Shown: piece by piece, positions 25,376 to 63,148 of the stretch
How positions within the stretch are numbered: the first letter of the stretch is position 1
How the letters are laid out: every line of letters begins with the position of its first letter
Source: a virus
Strand: one strand, 5' to 3'
DNA length: 64,000 bases
IMG/VR virus record: IMGVR_UViG_3300032144_000003
Span: 1 to 64,000 of that record
Position numbers and translations under genes: made by a program
Notes under the pieces: generated by a model
Database searches by the model: none
What the model was told of the DNA's origin: nothing
Seen by the model: the letters and a program-made list of their open reading frames with translations, nothing else

Positions 25376-25600
25376 ATGTGTGTTCCATTGGCATTTATCG
25401 GTGCAGTGTTTTGTCGGTTCCAGATGGCCAATCGCGCGACACGTCACTTGCTGCTTGCGGCGACAAAGCTAGGGCGAGGGCAGTACGAGCGACTGCCCAG
25501 TTACAACGACACTCTCTGGTGCCTGTTTTGCGGCGAGTCTCAAGATCATTTACTGCTCCGCTGCGGACTCTCGCCGCAAGGAAAAAAACCGCATGTATGA
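25376..25600 (+). CDS. possible small protein upstream of the Clp_N gene
   Basis: ATG 25376 (or TTG 25295). The stop overlaps ATG 25593. Support is weak. Confidence 0.2.
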   Translation: MCVPLAFIGAVFCRFQMANRATRHLLLAATKLGRGQYERLPSYNDTLWCLFCGESQDHLLLRCGLSPQGKKPHV

Positions 25601-26552
25601 ACGCTTCACAGGCCGACTCCGCACGGTCATGCAACTGGCCAATCAGGAGGCCCAGCGGTTCCATCACGAATACATCGGCACCGAGCACATCCTGTTAGGG
25701 CTGGTCAAGGAGGGCACGGGCGCCGCGGGACTAATCTTCGCGTCGCGAAACATCGACCTTCAGGACGTGCGCCGTGAAGTCGAGAAGCTCATTCAGGCTG
25801 GCCCTGACCTGAACTTCGCTGGCAAGTTGCCGCAAACGCCGCGAGCCAAGAATGTGATCACCTTTGCGGCGGAAGAAGCCCGCAACCTTAACCACAACTA
25901 CATCGACACGGCTCACCTGCTGCTGGGCCTACTCCGGGAACAGGATGGCATTGGCGGTCACGTGCTGTCCAAGCTCGGTCTGGAATACGGCGAAGTCAAG
26001 GAAATCATTTGTGGCATCATTCACTCGTCAACCACACCATCCATCCAACCAAGGAACCCCATGAACCCCTTCGACCGCTTCGTTTCCGACGTGACCCTGA
26101 CCGCCAACCCCAACGCCTCATCGGCCATCATCTGGGGGCCGCTGCTGACGGACTTCCTGTCCCGGCTGATGGACTGCCTGTTCAGCCGCTTTGGCGGGGG
26201 TGGCACGGCCAATCCCAATGCCCCCGCGATCGATGACGAATGGCCGGAACCACTAGAGGTCGCTGCTGCCGACGATTGGATCAGCAAGGCGGAAGCGCTC
26301 CAGACCCGGCTGCGAAGAATGGAGTCGAACCGCCGCGTGCATTCGGACCAGTGGGGCGGATACAAGCCCGCCGGAGTGCGCCGGGGGATGGCGACGCTGC
26401 GGAGAACGGTGCGAGACAATGGCCAGCGGGCATCAGAGCAGGAAATCCGGCAGCACGTCATCGCTACCTACGACAACGCCAGCGGCATGCGGGTCGAGGA
26501 ACTGGCGGAAGTCCTCAAGAGTGAGAGCGAACGACACGCCGCGACCGCCTGA
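25593..26552 (+). CDS. Clp_N (ClpA/ClpC N-terminal repeat) domain protein lacking AAA+ modules
   Basis: MYERFTGRLRTVMQLANQEAQRFHHEYIGTEHILLGLVKEG plus a second repeat TPRAKNVITFAAEEARNLNHNYIDTAHLLLGLLREQDG. No Walker motifs in the remaining ~170 aa. Confidence 0.75.
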   Translation: MYERFTGRLRTVMQLANQEAQRFHHEYIGTEHILLGLVKEGTGAAGLIFASRNIDLQDVRREVEKLIQAGPDLNFAGKLPQTPRAKNVITFAAEEARNLNHNYIDTAHLLLGLLREQDGIGGHVLSKLGLEYGEVKEIICGIIHSSTTPSIQPRNPMNPFDRFVSDVTLTANPNASSAIIWGPLLTDFLSRLMDCLFSRFGGGGTANPNAPAIDDEWPEPLEVAAADDWISKAEALQTRLRRMESNRRVHSDQWGGYKPAGVRRGMATLRRTVRDNGQRASEQEIRQHVIATYDNASGMRVEELAEVLKSESERHAATA

Positions 26553-49018: not shown

Positions 49019-49579
49019 GCCCGCCGGTGCCAGAAACCGGCCACGTGCCTGCCCGTGTCACGAGAGAAGACGGCCACTCATCTGAGAGACAGGCAAAAAT
49101 CCCCCTGTGTGAGGTGAGCAGGAATCGAGCGACCGAAGCCCAATGGCAGGGCGGGCAGTCCTGAAGGGTCATCCGCAGTCGGCACGCTGGTCGTCGCCGT
49201 GCCATCCAACGGGAGACTGAGATGTAGACCTGACGAGAGTGTGAAGGAATGAGACCGGACTACAGCAGGGATAGACCTGCCGTGGGGAACCCGCAAGAAA
49301 GTTCCACGTAAAAGCACCGTTGCGGGCTGGCGGATGATGAATCCGCCAGAACATGGATCGGCGGCGTGGACAAGTGACACGCAGGCAACTGTCCTCGGCT
49401 CACACTGGGGGCAGCTACTTGAGGCGGCGAGCCGGGAGTGATGGGCGTTCAGGAGCAGTGCTCGACACTGACGAAGAACCCGATAACCGGGCCGAAATAA
49501 TTCACCGCGAATGACCTCAGCAGGTGCAAGTCCTGTCCGATCCACTGGACGTCAACAACCCCCAACAAGGAGTCAAAGC
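49019..49579 (+). ncRNA. long non-coding gap with multiple stable hairpins (candidate structured RNA or cis element)
   Basis: No + strand ORF of 60 aa or more. The - strand ORFs are Arg/Ser/Leu-rich shadow ORFs. Hairpins at 49023-41, 49181-203 and 49327-49 (9-bp stem). Confidence 0.3.
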
Positions 49580-51787
49580 ATGGCCACTGAAATCGCACAA
49601 CCTGGCACTGAACGTCGCCCGCAAGCCAATCTCCCGTCCATTCGCCCGGAACGTCTTCCATACCACCCTGCATTGCAGGAGAAGTTCAACATCGGGAGAT
49701 CAGAATGGCGGGCATTGGTCGAGGCCGTATTTCCTCTGGCACAGTCTATCGATTCGGTGATCCTGGCACTGTCGTACTGCAAGGCCCGCCGGTTGGACCC
49801 TTTCAAGCGAGTCGTGCACATCGTGCCGATCTGGGATTCCAAGCAGCGGTGCACTGTGGACACGATCTGGCCTGGCATCGGAGAACTGAGAACGACTGCC
49901 ATGCGGACGAAAGAGTACGCCGGACGCGACAAAACGGAGTTCGGTCCGGATGTCACGCGGCGGGTCGGCACGCTGGAAATCACATTTCCTGAGTGGGCAC
50001 AGGTCACGGTGTATCGGATGGTGAACGGGCAGCGAGTGGCGTTCGCTGGTCCGCAGGTGTACTGGCTGGAGACGTACGCAGAGCGGGGCGGCAAAGACCA
50101 CGACAGGACTCCCAACAGCATGTGGGCGAAGCGAACGCGGGGGCAACTCGACAAATGCTTTGATGAGCACACCGAGGTACTAACAACCGAAGGATTCCAG
50201 AGATTTTCGGAAGTGACCGGACTGATTATGCAGGTCACGGACCACGGCCTAGAGCCAACCAACGCCGTTCCGTTCGCTCGCGAATACGACGGCCCGATGG
50301 TGACATGCGACGGAAACGTGCTGAACTTCAGTGTCACGCCGAATCACGACATGGTCACCACGAATGGAAAGGTAGAGGCGGCAGAAGTTGTCGCCAAAAG
50401 CACAAGCACCGGGGGATTCGATATCCCGCTGGTAATTGATGGGTCTGGCCCGGACGCCAACTTTACTGACAGGCAGATCATGGTGGCCGCAGCACTCGCC
50501 TGCGATGGGTATCGACATGGAGGTGAACTGTGCATTGCCGTCAGCAGGAAGCGGAAGGTTCAATTCCTTCGGCAGATTGGAATGCACAAGTCAATGCACG
50601 TGCGGCAGTGTGCTGGGGAGGACACAGTCTCGTCATCAGGGCGGGTCATCACAACGACGGCCAATAAGATGGTGTTCGGCTACCGCAGGGACGTTGCTGG
50701 TGATTTATTGATTGAAGGAACGAAGCTGCTCGACAGCGCGCAGGTGGTTCGCCTGAGCAGACGACAGGCAAGGCTGCTTGTTGATTCAATGCTCCAGTGT
50801 GATGGGCACGAATCCCGAACGGCCAGACGATTCTTTGCCTCGTCGCGGTCGATCCTGGCCGCCTTCGAGGTTGCAGCCTGCGTTGCGGGGTACGCGATCA
50901 GTTACCGACGAGTACGGAAATCTGACATTGGCGGCAAGAACTACTACGTGACGGTGAGCACAAAGACGACGGCCCGTACCATGAGAGCAAGTCGTAGCCA
51001 ATCCAGGCTGAAAGGTGGTCTACGGCACACGCTCAATGAGTCAGGCATTGTCTGGTGCTGCACGGTGCCGACTGGACAAATCGTCGTGCGACGTAAAGGG
51101 CTGTCGATGATCTGCGGCAATTGCGCCGAGGCCGCCGCCCTGCGAGCGGCTTTCCCAGAAGAGATCGGAAACGAGTACATCGCAGAAGAGGCGCATGCGC
51201 CGTCCGGATCAGAGGCGAGACAGGTACAGTCCATCGTCAAGGTGTCCGGAGCATCGGCCACGGAGAACCTTGCACAAATGATGCAGGGTGAAGCCAGAGA
51301 AGAGTCCCAGGTTGACCAAGAGGCAGTAGGACCGCATGATCCGGATGTCAACGCCGACGAACCCCTCGAATCCGCCGACGTTCTGGAGATCATCAGCGAC
51401 CCGCCCGCGGACCAGACGCAGTCCAGCCAGCCTCAAACGGACGAACCAGCGGCGGAAACGAAGCCCGCCCGCAAGCCCGCCAAGCAGCAGAAAACACTGA
51501 CGGATGCGCCGCCGCAAACGCAGTCCGCCAGTCCGCCACCTGTCGATCCCCGCGAATGGGCGAAGTACGGCAGTGTCGGAACGGACAACCCGCAGCGGTA
51601 CTGCAACCGAATCAAGATTGCCGTCGGCAAAGCCAAGACTGCCGAGCATCTGGCAATTCTCAACGAGGCGCTGAACACCGCCTGTCAGGTCGGAGATGTG
51701 ACGGCGGAGCACGCGGACCCCGTGTACGCCGCCATCGACGCCGCCCATGCTGGTCTGGAAATGGAATCGTCCCAGGCCGCGTCCTGA
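49580..51787 (+). CDS. recT: RecT-family single-strand annealing protein interrupted by an intein
   Basis: AAGGAG precedes ATG 49580. RecT-like CKARRLDPFKRVVHIVPIWD ... NSMWAKRTRGQLDK / CAEAAALRAAFPEE flanks a 322-aa insert. Confidence 0.8.
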   Translation: MATEIAQPGTERRPQANLPSIRPERLPYHPALQEKFNIGRSEWRALVEAVFPLAQSIDSVILALSYCKARRLDPFKRVVHIVPIWDSKQRCTVDTIWPGIGELRTTAMRTKEYAGRDKTEFGPDVTRRVGTLEITFPEWAQVTVYRMVNGQRVAFAGPQVYWLETYAERGGKDHDRTPNSMWAKRTRGQLDKCFDEHTEVLTTEGFQRFSEVTGLIMQVTDHGLEPTNAVPFAREYDGPMVTCDGNVLNFSVTPNHDMVTTNGKVEAAEVVAKSTSTGGFDIPLVIDGSGPDANFTDRQIMVAAALACDGYRHGGELCIAVSRKRKVQFLRQIGMHKSMHVRQCAGEDTVSSSGRVITTTANKMVFGYRRDVAGDLLIEGTKLLDSAQVVRLSRRQARLLVDSMLQCDGHESRTARRFFASSRSILAAFEVAACVAGYAISYRRVRKSDIGGKNYYVTVSTKTTARTMRASRSQSRLKGGLRHTLNESGIVWCCTVPTGQIVVRRKGLSMICGNCAEAAALRAAFPEEIGNEYIAEEAHAPSGSEARQVQSIVKVSGASATENLAQMMQGEAREESQVDQEAVGPHDPDVNADEPLESADVLEIISDPPADQTQSSQPQTDEPAAETKPARKPAKQQKTLTDAPPQTQSASPPPVDPREWAKYGSVGTDNPQRYCNRIKIAVGKAKTAEHLAILNEALNTACQVGDVTAEHADPVYAAIDAAHAGLEMESSQAAS
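50156..51121 (+). mobile_element. intein with LAGLIDADG-type homing endonuclease domain
   Basis: Block A CFDEHTEVLTTEG, block B VTPNHDMVT, two LAGLIDADG-like motifs (IMVAAALACDGY; LLVDSMLQCDGH), blocks F/G VWCCTVPTGQIVVRRKGLSMICGN followed by +1 Cys. Confidence 0.75.
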
Positions 51788-51892: not shown

Positions 51893-53215
51893 ATGACAGC
51901 AGCGACAGCGACTCCCAAGACCGCCCCCAAGGCCAATCACCTCAAGTCTGCCGAGGTCCACAACTTCAAGGGGCTGCATCAGGCCAAGGTGACGTTTCCT
52001 GGCAGCGGGGTGATCATCATTGGCGGTCGCAATGGCAGCGGCAAGACGTCGTTCACGGATGCCATCTGGGCCGCGTTGGGAGGTGCATCCGCACTGGACG
52101 ACGTGCCGGTGATGCAGGGGCAGGAAGAGGCGACGATCCGGCTGGAGATTGATACCGATCCCCCGTTGATTGTGGAGCGGACGATCAAGTCCTCCGGCGG
52201 TTCCCCAGCGCTCAAGGTCTACACGGAGATGCCTGGCCCGACGGGCAAGCCGATCAAGTCTAACCTGTCCGGTCCGCAGTCCGTGCTCAATACGCTGGTG
52301 GGCAAGGTCGCGTTCGACCCACTGGAGTTCATCCGCCTCAAGCCCGCCGATCAGGTCAAGCTGCTGGCGGAACTGGTGGGGGTCGATGTGTCGAGGCTGG
52401 ACGGCGAGATTGCCGCTCTGATGCAGGAACGCCAGTCGGTCAAGAAAGAGCGGGACAAGCTGTCCGCCGTGGTCGAGGGGATGCCGCACCATACCGACGC
52501 CCCATCAGAGATCGTCAGTACCGAGGCACTCGTCAAGGAACTGTCCCATGCGGAAGCGGCGAACACCAAGCGGGCGCAGTTGGAACACCGCGCCAAAGAG
52601 CAGACGACGCAGAAAGCGAGTCTGGAGAAGCGGGAGCAGGAACTGCTGGCACAACTGGAGAAAGTGCGGTTCGATATTCAGGCGGCGGCGCAGGCCGTAA
52701 CGGAATTCTCAGCGCAGGCGGAACAATCTCCGGTCATCGACGTGGAGCCGATCAAGCAACGGATCAGCATGGCGTCCAGCATCAACCGCAAGGTGGAGGA
52801 CAACCGGCAGCGGGCCACGTCGCAACAGGCACTGGAGAACAAGGACACGGAAGTCACGGTGTTGACCAACGAGATCGAAGCCAAGCGCCAGGCCCGGCTC
52901 AAGATGATGGAGGAAGCGGAGTGGCCTGTGCCGGGGCTGGGGTTCAGCGACGCGGGCGTGACGTACAACGATCTGCCGATCGGCCAGATTTGCAGCGCCG
53001 AGAAGATCAAAGTGTCCACCGCCATCGGGCTGGGACAGAATCCGCAACTCAAGCTGATGTTCATCCACGATGGATCGCTGCTGGACGATGAGGGTCTGGC
53101 GATCATCGAGGAACTGGCGGTCGCGCACGATGCCCAGGTGTTCGTGGAGCGAGTCGGGACCGGTGACGAAGGGGCGATCATCATCGAGGAAGGGTACGTC
53201 AGGCAGGCGGTGTGA
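51893..53215 (+). CDS. SMC/SbcC/RecF-like AAA ATPase
   Basis: VHNFKGLHQAKVTFPGSGVIIIGGRNGSGKTS (Walker A), a central coiled coil, and C-terminal KLMFIHDGSLLDDEG (Walker B). Confidence 0.7.
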   Translation: MTAATATPKTAPKANHLKSAEVHNFKGLHQAKVTFPGSGVIIIGGRNGSGKTSFTDAIWAALGGASALDDVPVMQGQEEATIRLEIDTDPPLIVERTIKSSGGSPALKVYTEMPGPTGKPIKSNLSGPQSVLNTLVGKVAFDPLEFIRLKPADQVKLLAELVGVDVSRLDGEIAALMQERQSVKKERDKLSAVVEGMPHHTDAPSEIVSTEALVKELSHAEAANTKRAQLEHRAKEQTTQKASLEKREQELLAQLEKVRFDIQAAAQAVTEFSAQAEQSPVIDVEPIKQRISMASSINRKVEDNRQRATSQQALENKDTEVTVLTNEIEAKRQARLKMMEEAEWPVPGLGFSDAGVTYNDLPIGQICSAEKIKVSTAIGLGQNPQLKLMFIHDGSLLDDEGLAIIEELAVAHDAQVFVERVGTGDEGAIIIEEGYVRQAV

Positions 53216-53476
53216 TGCGAATCAATGAACACAATGAATTCATCGGGGTGCTTGCAGCCCCATGAGAGGCGAGAAGTGGCGACCAGCACGAACGAGAACA
53301 GGTGCGACAACGGGTGAACACACGCCCGCTCCGGAATGGGCAACCAGACCGGCCCCTGCGTTCAGCGACGCGCAAACACTCGCAGAAGGCTCCCGAAACG
53401 ATGGCCCGGATATGCAGTGAGCCTGGGCCGCACACGCTTTTTCACTTTTGGTTCTGTTCACTTAGGAGAATGACTG
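53216..53476 (+). other. 260-bp non-coding region upstream of the CRISPR module
   Basis: It contains GCGACAACGGGTGAAC (53304-19), identical to the start of the terminal repeat of array 2, and GCCGCACACGCTTTTTC (53427-43), partly complementary to the repeat 3' handles. Confidence 0.4.
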
Positions 53477-54073
53477 ATGGTCACGAGCAAGGAGAAGATG
53501 GTGGGACTCAAGCAGTTGTCGAAGGACGGGAACAGCAACGTGTTCCGCCGGGTGCAACTGGCGGCAGAGATTCTGGCGGACAGGGAGTTCGTCTCGTCGG
53601 AGTGGGGGGATGAGTTCCGGGCGTGGTCGGCGATGGAGGATGAGTGTTTCTCGATGCTCAAAGGACTCATGCCGTTCGCCCGGTTGCTCCAGATTCACCA
53701 GCGGTTTCCGACGGAGCGGCATTGGCTGGAGTACAACTACAACCTGGCCGTGATGGACGACCTGTGCTGTCAGGCGGAAGCGGAAGAGCGCGCCAAGGCC
53801 GGTGAGGTCCAACCTGTGGCGACGCGCCGCCGGGCGACGCTGGAACAGGTCGAGAAGCTGGAGGCGGAGAACCAGGCACTGGCGGTGCAGGTGCAGGAAC
53901 TCAGGCAGAAGGTCACGCCGGACGATCTCGACCGGGTCGAGGTGCTGGAGCAGGAGAACGCCCGGCTGCATCAGGAGCTTGGAAAACTGCGTCAGGAGAA
54001 CCTGGAACTGCGCCGTCAGGTTCAGAAACTCCGCGTGGGATCGTCGCGAACTCCGGAGCCTGTCGCGTGTTAG
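53477..54073 (+). CDS. coiled-coil protein directly upstream of CRISPR array 1
   Basis: AGGAGA lies 7 nt upstream. It has an N-terminal ~100-aa domain and a Leu-zipper-like C-terminal half (LEQVEKLEAENQALAVQVQELRQK...). The stop is 10 nt before the first repeat. Confidence 0.45.
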   Translation: MVTSKEKMVGLKQLSKDGNSNVFRRVQLAAEILADREFVSSEWGDEFRAWSAMEDECFSMLKGLMPFARLLQIHQRFPTERHWLEYNYNLAVMDDLCCQAEAEERAKAGEVQPVATRRRATLEQVEKLEAENQALAVQVQELRQKVTPDDLDRVEVLEQENARLHQELGKLRQENLELRRQVQKLRVGSSRTPEPVAC

Positions 54074-54082
54074 GTTCGTGGA

Positions 54083-54313
54083 GTTGTAAGGCCACCGGAA
54101 ATGAAGTGTGTGCGCAAGTGGTCGAGTCCCTCGTCCGTCGACTTGCGGTTGTAAGGCCACCGGAAATGAAGTGTGTGCGCAAGGCTCGAATTCTTCCGTG
54201 GTGATGGCCCGGCGCTGTAAGGCCACCGGAAATGAAGTGTGTGCGCAAGTTCACAGGGCCATGCAACTGGCCAATATGGGGTGTAACAGACCGTGAAGCG
54301 AAGTGTGTGCAAG
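54083..54313 (+). CRISPR. mini-CRISPR array 1 (3 repeats + degenerate terminal repeat, 3 spacers)
   Basis: 36-nt repeats at 54083-118, 54148-183 and 54214-249 (GTTGTAAGGCCACCGGAAATGAAGTGTGTGCGCAAG). Degenerate copy at 54280-313. Unique spacers of 29/30/30 nt. Confidence 0.8.
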
Positions 54314-54326
54314 AAAGGTCAAAAGA

Positions 54327-55637
54327 ATGCCCAAAGCAGTGATCGAAATTAAGCTCGGTGCGTGCCTCACCAGCCGCACGGAAGCGTTTCATCGTGAACT
54401 GATGAAACTCGCCGTCGGATGTCGGCAGATTCGTAACGGGGCGATGTCGGCCTGGCTGCAATGGATCGACGCCAATCCAGACTATCAGCCACAACAACGC
54501 AAGGACCGCAATGGGAAACTCAAGGTCACAAAAGATGGCACGCCAATTATGGAGTCGGCGTGGCTCCCGCAGCACGTCCAGAAGCTGCTGTATGATTCCG
54601 GACGCAAGGCGAACATCGCCGTTAGTTCCCACGTCGCATCACACTGTGTGAATGCGGTGATGCAGTATCTCGCCGGAGACCTGCCGTACAACCAGATCGA
54701 ACGCGGCGCGCCACGCTGCAAGGTCTGGCAGGCCATCCGTGACAGGCACATCAACGCCCCGTCCTACAGTGCGCTGGTGATCCCCGTCCCCAAGGCCAAT
54801 AGCGACCTGTGTTACAACGGCCAGACGACGAGCCGCAACGCCCTGCTGAAAGAGTGTGGGAAATCGTCGGCTGTGGTTTCCATTCCAATGTGGTCGCGCG
54901 AGGCGGGCCGGGAGAAGACAACCGCTATCTGCCGGATCGAGACGCGGCAACTCTCGCGCGGCAACCGGCAACTGCTGCAACGCATCGCACGCGACAAGGA
55001 CATGCACAGGGACAGCCAGATTGTCCTCAAGGATGGCCGCTGGCAGTTCCAACTCACGTATCAGGTGGAGCAGGAACTCTACCAGTTCGATCCGGCGCGG
55101 CAGGCCCGGCTGGTGATCTGCGACGGCACATCCGGCACGCCGTTCCGCCTGGAACTGCCCGGTGTCCCCGACTGGTCGATCTGTCGTGAGGAATCCAAGT
55201 TGCTGGTCAATGAACTGGCCCGCCTCGAAACCCGCCGCAAGACGATTGGCAAGTTCTACCGTGAGGGTCGCGGCCACGGTCACGGACGGCGGAAGGCGAT
55301 GGCCAACGCGAAGCGGATTGGAGCGCACGAAACCGGCCTGCGGCTCAACTTCATGCGGAAGACGATTGCGGAAGTGGTCAAGGCCGTGACCCGCTTCGAG
55401 TGCGGCACGCTGATTGTCGAGTCACCGAATCTGTTCGTGAAGAACTGCCGGAACAGGCCCACGTGGTTCAGCGACCGGGGTGTCACGTTCGCCTGGCATC
55501 AGGTGGTCAACACGTTGGGGCAGAAGTTGCCGGGCGTGCAGGTCGATCAACTCAGAATAGGGAAGGAAGAATGGCTCGGTTCAATTGCGAATGCGGAAAC
55601 TGCAAACGCCCCATGCGAGTCAGCAAGTCCCGCCTGA
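54327..55637 (+). CDS. TnpB/Cas12f-like RuvC-domain CRISPR effector candidate (N-terminal ~420 aa of the fold)
   Basis: SD AAAGG lies 8 nt upstream. TnpB-like order of elements: IVLKDGRWQFQLTYQVE, LVICDGTSG (RuvC-I Asp), RRKTIGKF...RRKAMANAKR, NFMRKTIAEVVKAVTRFECGTLIVESPNL (RuvC-II Glu). Flanked by arrays on both sides. Confidence 0.6.
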   Translation: MPKAVIEIKLGACLTSRTEAFHRELMKLAVGCRQIRNGAMSAWLQWIDANPDYQPQQRKDRNGKLKVTKDGTPIMESAWLPQHVQKLLYDSGRKANIAVSSHVASHCVNAVMQYLAGDLPYNQIERGAPRCKVWQAIRDRHINAPSYSALVIPVPKANSDLCYNGQTTSRNALLKECGKSSAVVSIPMWSREAGREKTTAICRIETRQLSRGNRQLLQRIARDKDMHRDSQIVLKDGRWQFQLTYQVEQELYQFDPARQARLVICDGTSGTPFRLELPGVPDWSICREESKLLVNELARLETRRKTIGKFYREGRGHGHGRRKAMANAKRIGAHETGLRLNFMRKTIAEVVKAVTRFECGTLIVESPNLFVKNCRNRPTWFSDRGVTFAWHQVVNTLGQKLPGVQVDQLRIGKEEWLGSIANAETANAPCESASPA

Positions 55638-55909
55638 AGGTGATTGCACGGGACAGGATCGTGCCGTTGTGCGAGACGTGCCGTCCATTCCGGAGCTACT
55701 TGATTGGACTCACAGAAGTCGAGCGGTTGCAGGCTGCAACATTGGCCGGGACCGATCGCAGAAAGGAAGAGGTGACATGTCAGGGACTTACGAACGACGG
55801 GTTGATACGGGATAGGGCGAAAGGTGGCCAGCATTCCGGACCTCTCGCAGGCGGACGCCTAACGTGTGTGACAGACAGGCGATGCATTGCGGGCGGTGAC
55901 AATACCTGA
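55571..55909 (+). CDS. zinc-ribbon module (TnpB/Cas12 C-terminal-like) in the -1 frame relative to the effector ORF
   Basis: GGAAGGAAG precedes ATG 55571. MARFNCECGNCKRPMRVSKSRLKVIARDRIVPLCETC. It overlaps the effector ORF end by 67 nt and runs into the first repeat of array 2. Confidence 0.45.
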   Translation: MARFNCECGNCKRPMRVSKSRLKVIARDRIVPLCETCRPFRSYLIGLTEVERLQAATLAGTDRRKEEVTCQGLTNDGLIRDRAKGGQHSGPLAGGRLTCVTDRRCIAGGDNT

Positions 55910-56145
55910 GAAAGCGAAGTGTGTGTGCAAGTTGATGCCTATTATCGCCGCCGGGGAATACCGGCGTGTGACAATACCTGAGAAAGCGAAGTGTGTGTGC
56001 AAGTTGATCTGGTTGTTCGCATCAATGCGGCCTCGGGTGGTGACAATACCTGAGAAAGCGAAGTGTGTGTGCAAGATCACCGCCGAACCCAACGGCACCC
56101 CGGATAGGTTGCGACAACGGGTGAACGAAAGAAAGTGTGTGCAAC
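55896..56145 (+). CRISPR. mini-CRISPR array 2 (3 identical repeats + degenerate terminal repeat, 3 spacers)
   Basis: 36-nt repeats at 55896-931, 55968-56003 and 56040-075 (GTGACAATACCTGAGAAAGCGAAGTGTGTGTGCAAG). Degenerate copy at 56111-145. Unique spacers of 36/36/35 nt. Confidence 0.8.
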
Positions 56146-58239: not shown

Positions 58240-58389
58240 CATAGACCTAGACCAGACTCAACGTGACCAGACTGGACGCGACATGACTCGACTCGACTCG
58301 ACATGACGTGACAGGACAAGATTCGACGGGACGTGACAAGACCGGACAAGACAAGATTCCTCTCCAGTAGGCGGGAACAGGCAGACGCA
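58240..58389 (+). repeat. GAC-rich repeat region with three ACGTGACNAGAC boxes
   Basis: Boxes at 58261-72, 58306-17 and 58331-42. Also GACTCGACTCGACTCGAC, and GACAAGATT twice. Non-coding. Confidence 0.6.
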
Positions 58390-61224: not shown

Positions 61225-61704
61225 ATGACAGAATCAGCCATGCCGATGGATCAGATTGGGGGGCAAGGGGGAGCCAATATGCTCCCCGCTTCGATTTCTC
61301 CCGGTGGTCAGACCAGCGACACTCGCCTGCTGGCGCGAGCGATCAAAGAGCGCTGGCCGATGACAGATGCTCTTCGCAAAGCGGTCGTCTCGTGCCTGTC
61401 TCGCATCATTCTGGATAGCGGCCTAGCTCCCCGTGAACGTGTCTCCGCCGCGAAAGCCTTGTTGCTCGCAGACAGAATCAATCTTGCCGAACAACAAGGC
61501 CCTGCCAAAGAACAACACAGCCACTTGCATTTGCATGGAAATCCTGACTCAATCCGATCGTCTCTGGCTGCACTCTCGGATCGCTACGGACTTTCAGGCA
61601 GTTCAGGAGTGGATGGATCAGCAGGCCCCACGAACACGGACTTCGCTAATTCGTCAGTTGATAGCGGAATCGAATCCGGGGACGCCGGGCCTGAGTCTGC
61701 ATGA
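61225..61704 (+). CDS. putative terminase small subunit
   Basis: It lies directly upstream of and overlapping terL. Helical segment TRLLARAIKERWPMTDALRKAVV...RERVSAAKALLLADRINLAEQQ. Assignment is by position. Start is uncertain (61138 TTG / 61225 ATG). Confidence 0.4.
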   Translation: MTESAMPMDQIGGQGGANMLPASISPGGQTSDTRLLARAIKERWPMTDALRKAVVSCLSRIILDSGLAPRERVSAAKALLLADRINLAEQQGPAKEQHSHLHLHGNPDSIRSSLAALSDRYGLSGSSGVDGSAGPTNTDFANSSVDSGIESGDAGPESA

Positions 61705-63148
61705 ATTTTTAATTGGCATTTGGCCAACGCTGGAGCCAGCGCATCCGTTTAATGATTCGTGGCACGTCCGTGCGATCTGCGATCACGCGCAGGAATGTGT
61801 TATCGGGCACAGCTTCAAGAGGCTGCTTGTCAACATTCCACCGGGTATGTCGAAATCGCTGATTGCTTCGGTAGTGCTGCCGTGCTGGTCTTGGACGTTC
61901 CGACCGTGGTTCCGTTGGCTATGCGCGAGCTATGATCAGCCGACTGCGGACGATTTTTCGACGAAGCGCCGCAACGTTCTCTTGAGTGAATGGTATCGCG
62001 AGCGATGGCCGGAAGCGGCGAATCTCCAGACAACCAAAGAATCCAAAAAGCGGGACACGATCCGGCTGATTCAGAATGCAACCGGCGGGGAAATGTTGGC
62101 CACCTCACCGAAGGGGAGGGCGCTTGGAAAACACCCGATGGGGGTTGTAATAGACGATCCCCACAATCCCAAGGTTGACGAAGCATTGGGCGATGTGAGC
62201 CTACGTGATGTTCGTAACTGGATTGATGGCGTACTCTCGACTCGCGGCGTGGCGGTCGATGTTGATGTGCGACTGTTGCTTATCATGCAAAGACTGTCGG
62301 AAGATGATGCTTCGCAAGTCATGCTGAATTACGGCGACTGTGAGCACCTTTGCCTGCCGATGGAATACGATCCGGATCATCCTGTAAGAAACCCCAGGCA
62401 GCCGACTACGCTGGGATTCACCGATCCCCGAACGACGCGGGGAGAGCTACTTTGTCCGGAGCGGTTCCCGGCACATGTGGTCGATGGGATGCAACGCCGC
62501 CTGCGGTCGCGGGCTGCGGGCCAGCTACAGCAAATGCCCAAAGACCCCGAAGGAGATCGGTTCAAGCGAGCGTGGTTCACGACTGTGACGCGGGCTGCGT
62601 TACCCAAAGATATCAATCAAAAAGGCGTGGCCGTTCGTTATTGGGATAAGGCGGGAACTGAAGGTGGCGGTGACTGGACTGCCGGTGTGCTGTTAGTCCG
62701 GCACGAAGGACTGTACTACGTTGTCGATGTGGAGCGGGGGCAATGGTCAGCGGCCAATCGCAAAATGCACATGGAGAGAGTCGCGAAATACGATGCCGAG
62801 ATTTGGAAAAACTACACGATCTGGCAGGAGCAGGAGCCTGGTTCCGGTGGCAAAGAGTCTGCGGAAAATACAGTACGGGAGCTCTCCAGCTTCAGCGTTC
62901 GCACCGAGCGGGTCACAGGACCGAAGTCGGCCCGCTACAATAACTGGGAAGAAGAGCTTGATTCGACAACCAATACCCGCGTACCCACTGTACTGCTAGT
63001 GGACGCACACTGGAACCGGCCATTTATCGAAGAACATTGTGAGTGGCGCTGGGAAGACAAGAGTCCGACGGACGATCAGATTGACGCGGCAGCGGGAGCG
63101 TACATGAAACTGAAAAAGCAGCGTTCCTTTGTGGCGGCGTGCAGTTAA
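61535..63148 (+). CDS. terL: terminase large subunit
   Basis: FLIGIWPTLEPAHPFNDSWHVRAICDHAQE...RLLVNIPPGMSKSLIASV (Walker A-like), LLIMQRLSEDD, and C-terminal nuclease DDQIDAAAGAYM. Alternative start at 61613. Confidence 0.85.
   Translation: MEILTQSDRLWLHSRIATDFQAVQEWMDQQAPRTRTSLIRQLIAESNPGTPGLSLHEFLIGIWPTLEPAHPFNDSWHVRAICDHAQECVIGHSFKRLLVNIPPGMSKSLIASVVLPCWSWTFRPWFRWLCASYDQPTADDFSTKRRNVLLSEWYRERWPEAANLQTTKESKKRDTIRLIQNATGGEMLATSPKGRALGKHPMGVVIDDPHNPKVDEALGDVSLRDVRNWIDGVLSTRGVAVDVDVRLLLIMQRLSEDDASQVMLNYGDCEHLCLPMEYDPDHPVRNPRQPTTLGFTDPRTTRGELLCPERFPAHVVDGMQRRLRSRAAGQLQQMPKDPEGDRFKRAWFTTVTRAALPKDINQKGVAVRYWDKAGTEGGGDWTAGVLLVRHEGLYYVVDVERGQWSAANRKMHMERVAKYDAEIWKNYTIWQEQEPGSGGKESAENTVRELSSFSVRTERVTGPKSARYNNWEEELDSTTNTRVPTVLLVDAHWNRPFIEEHCEWRWEDKSPTDDQIDAAAGAYMKLKKQRSFVAACS

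Follow-up and report, generated by a model that had tools for sequence, protein, structure and literature searches.

The 64,000-nucleotide (nt) stretch of DNA analyzed here (the window; positions 1 to 64,000 of the IMG/VR virus record IMGVR_UViG_3300032144_000003), which by its gene content is a phage genome, carries a CRISPR locus in which two mini-arrays flank a single effector gene, with all the components on the + strand. The locus probably encodes a nuclease-dead Cas12f-like system (dCas12f) that depends on a trans-activating CRISPR RNA (tracrRNA). The repeats of the two arrays differ in their 5′ halves and share their 3′ end, which is the part that is predicted to pair with the tail of a single tracrRNA-like element upstream of the arrays.

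Two dissimilar repeats converge on a common 3′ end

Mini-array 1 (54083–54313, + strand) contains three copies of a 36-nt repeat, R1 (GTTGTAAGGCCACCGGAAATGAAGTGTGTGCGCAAG; 54083–54118, 54148–54183 and 54214–54249, the third copy carrying the substitution T2C), and ends with a degenerate terminal repeat, T1 (54280–54313). Its spacers (54119–54147, 54184–54213 and 54250–54279) are 29, 30 and 30 nt long, and the period is 65–66 nt. Mini-array 2 (55896–56145, + strand) contains three identical copies of a different 36-nt repeat, R2 (GTGACAATACCTGAGAAAGCGAAGTGTGTGTGCAAG; 55896–55931, 55968–56003 and 56040–56075), and a degenerate terminal repeat, T2, which is best delimited at 56108–56145. The spacers of this array (55932–55967, 56004–56039 and 56076–56107) are 36, 36 and 32 nt long, with a period of 72 nt. 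The spacer classes of ~30 and ~36 nt that a first-pass annotation had proposed from the sequence are thus recovered as two length classes, but the third spacer of array 2, with 32 nt, does not fit the longer one.

As that annotation had also described, R1 and R2 differ in their first 20 nt, where 9/20 positions are identical, and converge over the remainder (15/16) on the common 3′ end GAAGTGTGTG(C/T)GCAAG, hereafter the handle. The shared 16-mer GAAGTGTGTGYGCAAG is confined to six sites within the 64 kb, all on the + strand; a search allowing up to three mismatches found six sites against 1.2 expected, and none of 100 shuffled sequences reached six. Because the degenerate repeats stand at the right-hand ends and the genes of the window lie nearly all on the + strand, both arrays are read from left to right. 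The shared 3′ segment therefore adjoins the spacer in both arrays.

A conserved upstream element is predicted to pair with the handle

The window was compared with contigs that encode homologs of the effector (related loci, given L-numbers). The conserved repeated unit of these relatives is a short, purine-rich, C-poor 3′ motif, which is always on the gene strand and is locus-specific (GGGTGAGTAGTGAAAG in L001, GGTGAATAGGGGAAC in L002, GGTAGTAGCAG in L004 and ACAGGTGATGCAAG in L007). Since the motif has no hairpin or pseudoknot potential, a complementary partner was sought. Comparison of the upstream regions showed that the window, L001, L002 and L007 share a conserved non-coding element that lies on the same strand, and a DNA probe also found it in L075 (an IMG/VR phage, the same phage as L035 and L134). 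The window copy, the tracrRNA candidate, lies on the + strand at 53236–53460 (ends approximate), in the intergenic gap between an SMC-like open reading frame (ORF) that ends at 53215 and the ORF of the partner gene described below, which starts at 53477. Rfam yielded zero family matches across the whole window.

The element has a 5′ hairpin (~53245–53261) in which RNAalifold detects compensatory changes. An invariant block 1, CCATGAGAGGCGAG (53260–53273), is followed by block 2, which reads CTCGCAGAAGGCTCCCGAAAC in the window (53379–53399) and CTCGCAGAAGGC....GAAAC in the family form. CUCUC/CACUC of block 2 is predicted by RNAalifold to pair with GAGAG of block 1. Both blocks are conserved in L001, L002, L007 and L075, and each is present as a single copy in the window. 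A locus-specific tail follows 49–70 nt after the start of block 2; the window anti-repeat tail is GCCGCACACGCTTTTTCACTTTTGG (53427–53451). In L001, L002, L007 and L075, the only tail 9-mers with a highly repeated reverse complement sit 49–70 nt past block 2, with 4–15 copies on the gene strand and, on the opposite strand, one in L007 and zero in L001, L002 and L075. The tail and the handle thus correspond as GCTACTCACCC and GGGTGAGTAGTG in L001, CTATTCACC and GGTGAATAG in L002, GCGTCACCTGTT and AACAGGTGATGC in L007, and GCGTCATTCCTGT and ACAGGAATGATGC in L075.

The predicted duplexes of the window tail have energies of −23.7 (R1), −23.7 (R2), −22.8 (T1) and −23.4 kcal/mol (T2). At most 4 of 1000 tail shuffles reach the observed energy for any of these repeats, and all four therefore pair with the same tail better than at least 99.6% of the shuffles. 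In the relatives, the corresponding counts are 0–1 of 1000 for L001, L007 and L075 and 24 of 1000 for L002. When every handle is combined with every tracrRNA candidate, the cognate pair is the best in 6/6 rows, with a small margin for L002 (−17.8 vs −16.3), and the duplex ends 1–3 nt before the spacer in every case. R1 and R2 pair with the same tail segment, but in different registers beyond the shared 16-mer: GAGAAAGCG of R2 pairs with CGCUUUUUC, whereas CCGGAAAUG of R1 does so with CACUUUUGG, which lies further 3′. The constraint thus extends a little beyond the shared 16-mer, and each repeat solves the pairing in its own way. In a scan of 5 kb on both strands, with the repeats' own antisense masked, the window tail is the best non-trivial match, and it stands at the homologous position. 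Immediately upstream of the L001 element, the + strand additionally carries an 11/12 match to a sigma-70 promoter, and T-runs are found just past the tail in L001, L002 and L075.

These data make it likely that the element is a type V-F-like tracrRNA with a 3′ anti-repeat for the 3′ part of the repeat. The two arrays would then share their 3′ end because both must keep the tracrRNA-pairing segment, and the rest of the repeat would be free of that pairing constraint. The first-pass annotation had seen in the shared end a type V logic, with the effector reading the repeat next to the spacer. That the repeat 3′ end is functional and constrained holds up; the reading, however, likely proceeds via tracrRNA pairing and probably not by the protein alone, because the handle has no hairpin of its own and the anti-repeat covaries across five loci. 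The further proposal that both arrays serve one effector is borne out by the single effector gene and the single tracrRNA-like element in the window, together with the pairing of all four repeats with one tail.

Other searches for the element were less discriminating. When the anti-handle was sought by duplex energy alone, the repeats' own trivial antisense dominated the result, and the candidates left after masking were individually non-significant in the window. A 14-mer tracrRNA probe gave mostly chance matches in IMG/VR, where only one phage (L031/L035/L075) passed the second-block filter. A two-block probe of metagenomes and genomes returned six loci, of which only L134 (the L075 phage) has an effector homolog; L131, L132, L133, L135 and L136 appear unrelated and were rejected as family loci. 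Near-identical sequences in L131 (2387–2498) and L136 (6722–6833; a metagenome-assembled genome labelled Methanoregula) match both probe blocks at the right spacing and continue differently after block 2, and the DNA fetched for them encodes no effector homolog. These two sequences could match by chance or be distantly related to the tracrRNA.

The interior of the window element (53303–53319) and the 5′ half of T2 (56110–56126) share an exact 17-mer, TGCGACAACGGGTGAAC, in the same orientation; none of 100 shuffles contains two matches. A repeat-5′-like sequence, GCAACGGG, also occurs in the sense orientation in or near the tracrRNA of L001 and L007, at non-homologous positions, and is not found in L075. 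The shared 17-mer may indicate that the tracrRNA was born from a repeat, or it may be a common protein-binding motif.

The effector has a predicted Cas12f fold and lacks the zinc finger and RuvC-III

The effector gene (54327–55637, + strand) encodes a protein of 436 amino acids (aa), which has no match in Pfam. PADLOC assigns it to Cas12u3 (1.5e-6) and Cas12f (2e-5), with a match that stops near position 305 of the ~398-position profile, and gives no Cas12m match. A five-model AlphaFold (AF2) prediction, computed from an alignment of eight sequences, has a mean confidence (pLDDT) of 80. The top Foldseek match of the model is AsCas12f (PDB code: 7wju; E 1.7e-16, TM-score 0.57–0.60), the next PDB matches are SpCas12f1, OsCas12f and Un1Cas12f1, and the top 20 are all Cas12f; a natural dCas12f (9n9c) matches at 6e-11. 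At the sequence level, the family profile detects Cas12f in the PDB at 1.4e-14 and the sigmaE-type dCas12f at only 1e-5.

The protein stops shortly after the RuvC-II region, without the zinc finger and without RuvC-III. All seven homologs from a word search end at the same place, and a frameshift or assembly error behind the short effector is thereby ruled out, as all the relatives are equally short. An exhaustive profile search found 792 family clusters, 158 of them at E ≤ 1e-30; almost all are 380–550 aa long and match through to the end of the profile. In 133 full-length members, the last 160 aa never contain more than one CxxC motif, and the column of the RuvC-I aspartate contains no conserved Asp across the family. 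The family thus has neither an intact RuvC D-E-D triad nor a zinc-finger/TNB insert between RuvC-II and RuvC-III, while a Glu in a YREP motif near RuvC-II is conserved. Because the zinc finger, RuvC-III and the RuvC-I Asp are missing across the family, the effector is probably a nuclease-dead, RNA-guided DNA binder. Each locus has one member of the effector family, as does the window; a TnpB that neighbors the L001 locus was considered as an active paralog and rejected, since it is unrelated. The 50,697 deposited phage genomes searched contain no protein of the effector family.

The repeat 5′ halves are probably diverged rather than unrelated

Arrays are also present in L001, L007 and L075. 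Besides a 12-repeat array, L001 has single copies of the motif, the five repeats of L007 each have a different 5′ half, and L002 and L004 have runs of bare motifs, spaced 28–44 nt (typically 36–39 nt) and 33–63 nt apart, respectively. A typical L002 unit consists of a 14-nt half-repeat and ~22–24 nt of unique sequence. Array periods elsewhere in the family are 70–77 nt, which implies spacers of 34–41 nt, and the spacers of array 1 (29–30 nt) are atypically short in comparison.

The family consensus, derived from 12 aligned repeat variants of four loci, is GTTGCAACG.CTGG.GAAA.AAAG.GGGTG.TGCAAG. The 5′ halves of R1 and R2, which the first-pass annotation had called unrelated, each agree at 11/20 positions with the consensus built from non-window repeats (shuffle P 0.005 and 0.008). 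The terminal repeats, said to keep only the 3′ part, still match the family consensus in their 5′ halves at 9–11/20. T1 is a mosaic, R1-like at its start (GGTGTAA) and R2-like in its middle (GAAGCGAAG), and the 5′ half of T2 (GTTGCGACAACGGGTGAAC) is similar to the L001 repeat. Because both 5′ halves match the family consensus and T1 is a mosaic, R1 and R2 appear to be diverged descendants of one repeat type.

The arrays had also been suggested to be captured from different host arrays. A search of both repeats against the other arrays of IMG/VR found neither the 5′ halves nor the handle outside this locus, and capture is therefore not supported. The simpler reading is divergence in place under relaxed constraint, because in the relatives the 5′ half drifts within one array (L007) or is lost (L002 and L004). 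A recombinational origin of array 1 is nevertheless possible, given its short spacers and the arrangement of L137, a close relative (partner protein 75% identical) in which the Zn-ribbon gene comes immediately after the partner gene and the 1 kb contains no tracrRNA, effector or array. The two spacer-length classes may stand for two functions or for two histories of acquisition. The partner/Zn-ribbon junction of L137, GTGTGCGCAAAC, resembles the R1 handle, GTGTGTGCGCAAG, and is a possible deletion scar.

No adaptation genes (Cas1, Cas2 or Cas4) were found near the arrays, either here or in the relatives. The 15-repeat array of L075 contains a 108-nt repeat-spacer-repeat unit as an exact duplicate (2541–2648 and 2685–2792), which indicates that some array growth occurs by duplication and not by acquisition of new spacers. 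Two further conserved elements were observed in L001 and L007: a non-coding hairpin between the tracrRNA and the array (L001 4080–4114, L007 729–763; CTCGCGAGCGGT...ACCGCTCGCGAG, with a handle-like AGGTGGTG in the loop) and the element GGCTCTCGCGGAATG just before the first repeat (L001 4191–4205, L007 840–854). Both are absent from the window and could serve as leader or processing signals.

Copies of the handle also lie near the borders of the effector gene. A gap of 13 nt separates the end of the T1 handle from the effector start codon, and in five of six loci a copy lies 4–46 nt upstream of this codon, over or beside the ribosome-binding site (window 54300–54313; L007 1217–1227; L004 1318–1328; L002 5956–5969; L001 5941–5954). 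A second copy overlaps the effector stop codon in L004 (2740–2750), L002 (7277–7290) and L001 (7376–7389), with no clear one in the window; these stop-codon copies are reminiscent of the omega-RNA layout of TnpB. The copies at the start and stop could reflect autoregulation, with the tracrRNA and effector binding mRNA or DNA, or simply array read-through.

One spacer points to a Clp_N-domain gene

In the data at hand, a relative was found for only one of the six spacers, namely spacer 3 of array 1. It is identical at 24/30 positions to an imperfect protospacer-like site at 25618–25647 of the window, on the same (+) strand, where the best shuffled score in 60 trials is 21/30. The site starts 25 nt into a Clp_N-domain gene (25593–26552; Pfam Clp_N, 3.6e-30). 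The mismatches fall at guide positions 2, 4, 7, 10, 27 and 28. Positions 2, 4, 7 and 10 are covered by the seed of Cas12 enzymes, which is proximal to the protospacer adjacent motif, and the phage's own Clp_N copy would therefore probably escape. This pattern suggests that the real target is a diverged Clp_N homolog, in a related phage or in the host. The closest homologs of the phage Clp_N protein are encoded on chromosomes of Planctomycetota (Planctomyces sp. SH-PL14, Gemmataceae and Tepidisphaeraceae), which makes this phylum the probable host phylum and hints that the phage gene is host-derived. The peptide LHRAMQLANM, encoded by spacer 3, is absent from the 120 Clp_N homologs listed. The spacers have no match in INPHARED, and no cross-targeting was found among 73 guides of six loci.

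TTGAT is the start of spacers 1 and 2 of array 2 (55932–55936 and 56004–56008), as the first-pass annotation had pointed out, and also of one L001 spacer (~4874). These starts could be due to chance, to a duplicated repeat edge, or to a preference linked to acquisition or the seed. In addition, the first 16 nt of spacer 2 of array 2 match the effector gene in antisense at 14/16 positions (54685–54700, − strand). This match is probably due to chance, as we estimate ~0.03 such matches per guide, although it could be a self-regulatory guide.

Partner gene, Zn-ribbon ORF and phage context

The partner gene (53477–54073, + strand) encodes a 198-aa protein with an N-terminal helical domain and a C-terminal coiled coil. 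It is encoded beside the effector in every locus with enough flanking sequence; homologs adjoin the effector in L001, L004, L008, L075, L006 (partial) and L002, where the gene is downstream. In Pfam, the protein has coiled-coil-type matches only. Its AF2 model is all-helical (pLDDT 78) and has no significant fold match in the PDB, sigmaE (1or7) scoring merely E 9.7. The partner may supply the output function of the system.

A small ORF with a Zn-ribbon motif (CxCxxC...CxxC; 55571–55909, + strand) overlaps the effector 3′ end in another reading frame. Its homolog in L137 (820–1001) directly follows the partner gene and shows synonymous-type differences, and L075 has a weak counterpart. The ORF has no counterpart in the other loci compared and no Pfam match. 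It is a real gene, and its membership in the system is uncertain. The ORF occupies the −1 frame at the effector 3′ end, exactly where Cas12f carries its zinc finger, and may be a relic of the lost Cas12f domain.

Phage markers in the window include a terminase large subunit (61433–63148), which is at most 33% identical to those of known phages, a RecE-like exonuclease, RecT and an SMC-like ATPase. In a 758-aa ORF (49511–51787), the RecT domain is confined to residues 78–216, and a long insertion that starts with CFDEHTEV... and ends with ...ICGN/C has an intein-like look. Short tandem repeats at 58264–58356 (GACNN pentamers; periods of 10, 15 and 20 nt), in an intergenic or ORF-start region, are unrelated to the arrays.

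A model for guide use, and its alternatives

In the mechanism that we propose, the arrays would be transcribed together with the genes, and the 3′ part of every repeat, namely the shared handle and a few purine-rich bases upstream of it, would pair with the tail of the single ~220-nt tracrRNA, as predicted in silico and by covariation in the relatives. By homology, the duplex and the downstream spacer would be loaded into the effector as a dual guide in the style of type V-F. With only the tracrRNA-pairing segment constrained, the 5′ half of the repeat would be free to drift; the window arrays would differ there for this reason, the repeats of a relative would vary within one array, and some relatives would keep 14-nt half-repeats. 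The effector would then bind guide-matched DNA without cutting it and would silence or mark its targets, possibly with the partner protein, the one informative spacer pointing to the Clp_N-domain gene of a related phage or of the probably planctomycete host. From the analogy with Cas12m, TldR and the published dCas12f, we infer RNA-guided binding without cleavage, aimed at a competitor phage or a host gene. Our confidence in this biological role is lower than in a tracrRNA-dependent dCas12f.

Several observations weigh against this model. The window duplex holds a bulge and G:U pairs, and a shuffled 5-kb region (both strands) reaches a similar energy in ~4/10 trials, so that the weight of this duplex comes from its homologous position and from the tail shuffle test. 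The L002 duplex is short (9–12 base pairs; P = 0.024). Expression of the tracrRNA, its ends and the processing of the CRISPR RNA (crRNA) are predictions from the DNA sequence. The conserved Glu of the YREP motif leaves room for residual or novel catalysis, and no perfect protospacer was found (INPHARED; exact spacer 3 in IMG/VR). L137 keeps the partner and Zn-ribbon genes without a tracrRNA, effector or array in its 1 kb, and the partner may therefore have an effector-independent role.

The arrays could have separate origins, if recombination brought in at least one of them from another element or a host array whose repeat was already compatible with the tracrRNA or later became so; the difference in spacer length (29–30 vs 32–36 nt) would then reflect different adaptation machineries. 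The short spacers of array 1, the different registers in which R1 and R2 pair with the tail, and the direct junction of partner and Zn-ribbon genes in L137, which would make the effector and array 1 an insertion/deletion module, are all consistent with such a history. We consider it unlikely, since both 5′ halves resemble the family consensus (P < 0.01), T1 combines features of R1 and R2, neither the 5′ halves nor the handle occur in any other IMG/VR array, and the 5′ half drifts inside the single L007 array, with no Cas1, Cas2 or Cas4 nearby. It is quite improbable that the system uses the crRNA only, as Cas12a and Cas12m do, with the effector itself reading the single-stranded 3′ segment of the repeat as a 5′ handle and the upstream element acting as a leader, a regulator or a riboswitch-like RNA. 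Between loci, the tail of the element and the handle change together, and without pairing this would be hard to account for; the handle lacks the hairpin or pseudoknot potential of the known crRNA-only Cas12 handles, and the closest relatives in sequence and structure are the tracrRNA-dependent Cas12f. These points outweigh the sufficiency of ~14-nt half-repeat units in L002 and L004, the short predicted duplex of L002 and the report of sigmaE-linked dCas12f systems without a tracrRNA (PMC13472631).

Biomimicry has been proposed for an inactivated Cas9 that is encoded by phage along with a tracrRNA (PMC10910872), and phage mini-arrays that exploit host effectors are known (PMC11656645). The dead Cas12f and its tracrRNA might likewise be a decoy that sequesters or mis-programmes host type V-F RNAs, or the arrays might feed a host nuclease. 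Such a role is highly improbable for a complete locus (tracrRNA, effector and arrays with unique spacers) that belongs to a large conserved family, in which handle and anti-handle co-evolve in each locus as in a working ribonucleoprotein; moreover, a survey in PNAS reports that Planctomycetes are poor in TnpB (PMC10691335). It is hardly credible that the Zn-ribbon ORF, joined by frameshifting or acting in trans, rebuilds an active nuclease. The −1 frame stays open between 55400 and 55909, the CxCxxC...CxxC motif comes after the last RuvC strand with the spacing to be expected, and the ORF is under protein-level conservation, but it contains no RuvC-III motif (D.NAA.NI) and has no TNB or OrfB_Zn_ribbon match in Pfam, the effector also misses the RuvC-I Asp, and the ORF is absent from most related loci and stands without an effector in L137.

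Beyond the tracrRNA-dependent model, we tentatively raise the possibility that these phage loci stand, as living intermediates, between CRISPR arrays and single-guide (omega-type) RNAs, in which the partner gives a new output; they would then be a second independent RNA-guided regulator derived from Cas12f. The dead Cas12f would keep a separate tracrRNA and need a ~14-nt half-repeat before each guide. The guides would be carried in full arrays with drifting 5′ halves, in compressed arrays of ~38-nt units, or alone at the gene start or stop. The partner would, for example, block or recruit host machinery at Clp-type or competitor-phage genes, as sigmaE does for the dCas12f of Bacteroidota.

Comparison with known systems

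The locus resembles type V-F Cas12f (AsCas12f, Un1Cas12f1 and SpCas12f1) in its fold and its miniature effector of ~400–500 aa, in the guide on the 3′ side of the repeat, in the separate tracrRNA whose anti-repeat pairs with the 3′ part of the repeat, and in its short arrays of ~36–37-nt repeats next to the effector, often without an adaptation module. In contrast to type V-F, the family is without the zinc-finger/TNB region, RuvC-III and the RuvC-I Asp and probably has no nuclease activity; the system is phage-borne, has a conserved coiled-coil partner, and is reduced to bare half-repeats in some relatives. In type V-F, the effector works as a homodimer on one guide RNA.

Like Cas12m (type V-M) and TldR, which are RuvC-inactive repressors of plasmids and prophages, the system has a mobile carrier and would bind without cutting, presumably interfering with transcription or replication. 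Cas12m is crRNA-only and belongs to another Cas12 branch. TldR has no CRISPR array and uses an omega-RNA in cis that overlaps the gene 3′ end and precedes one guide, whereas arrays and an RNA in trans are found here; the guide unit at the effector stop codon in three relatives nevertheless recalls the omega-RNA layout of TnpB and TldR. Virus-borne mini-arrays in virus–virus conflict rely on a host effector and have repeats identical to those of the host (Medvedeva et al., 2019; reviewed in PMC11656645). The arrays described here are similarly very short, and one spacer resembles a gene of the carrier with mismatches, the pattern expected for a close-relative target. This phage, however, brings its own effector and tracrRNA, and the target could equally be a host Clp_N gene.

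In Bacteroidota, a naturally truncated, nuclease-dead Cas12f recruits sigmaE (Hoffmann et al., PMC13472631). There as here, the Cas12f fold is retained while part of the RuvC site is lost to a C-terminal truncation, and RNA-guided DNA binding for gene control is predicted. A distinct cluster of array-associated dCas12f is mentioned alongside in that report; the present family may belong to it or may represent an independent inactivation. Unlike the sigmaE-dCas12f systems, the present locus has no linked extracytoplasmic function sigma factor (rpoE) or helix-turn-helix (HTH) gene, with no sigma or HTH Pfam match in the flanking ORFs or in the neighborhoods of the homologs. The sigmaE-dCas12f uses a single chimeric guide (scaffold and 14–16-nt guide) with no tracrRNA and usually no array, whereas the loci here have a separate tracrRNA and true arrays. 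The family is closer in sequence to active Cas12f (1e-14) than to the sigmaE type (1e-5), and it resides in phages of ~60% G+C, probably of Planctomycetota, rather than in Bacteroidota chromosomes. We found no paper in the literature that describes this phage dCas12f family.

A path has been proposed in which Cas12f lost RuvC-III and the arrays shrank to a "half DR" (half direct repeat) beside the tracrRNA, with a later fusion (Altae-Tran et al., PMC10691335). The present loci fit this stage of minimized arrays next to a tracrRNA, but they are phage-borne, have a separate tracrRNA and true arrays, and are without a sigma or HTH gene; they offer extant examples of a stage proposed for the evolution of dCas12f guides. 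These phage-borne, apparently nuclease-dead Cas12f proteins form a sizeable family, with at least 158 clusters at E ≤ 1e-30. The family has its own tracrRNA and a conserved partner and is a candidate for a new mechanism of RNA-guided regulation or inter-phage competition. Natural arrays that are trimmed to the minimum may also be useful for compact multiplexed guide arrays in miniature dCas12f tools. The loci give a concrete reason why two dissimilar repeats can serve one effector, in that only the tracrRNA-pairing segment would matter. The shared 3′ handle itself is explained by the known logic of type V-F, and what is new is the phage-borne dCas12f-like system around it.

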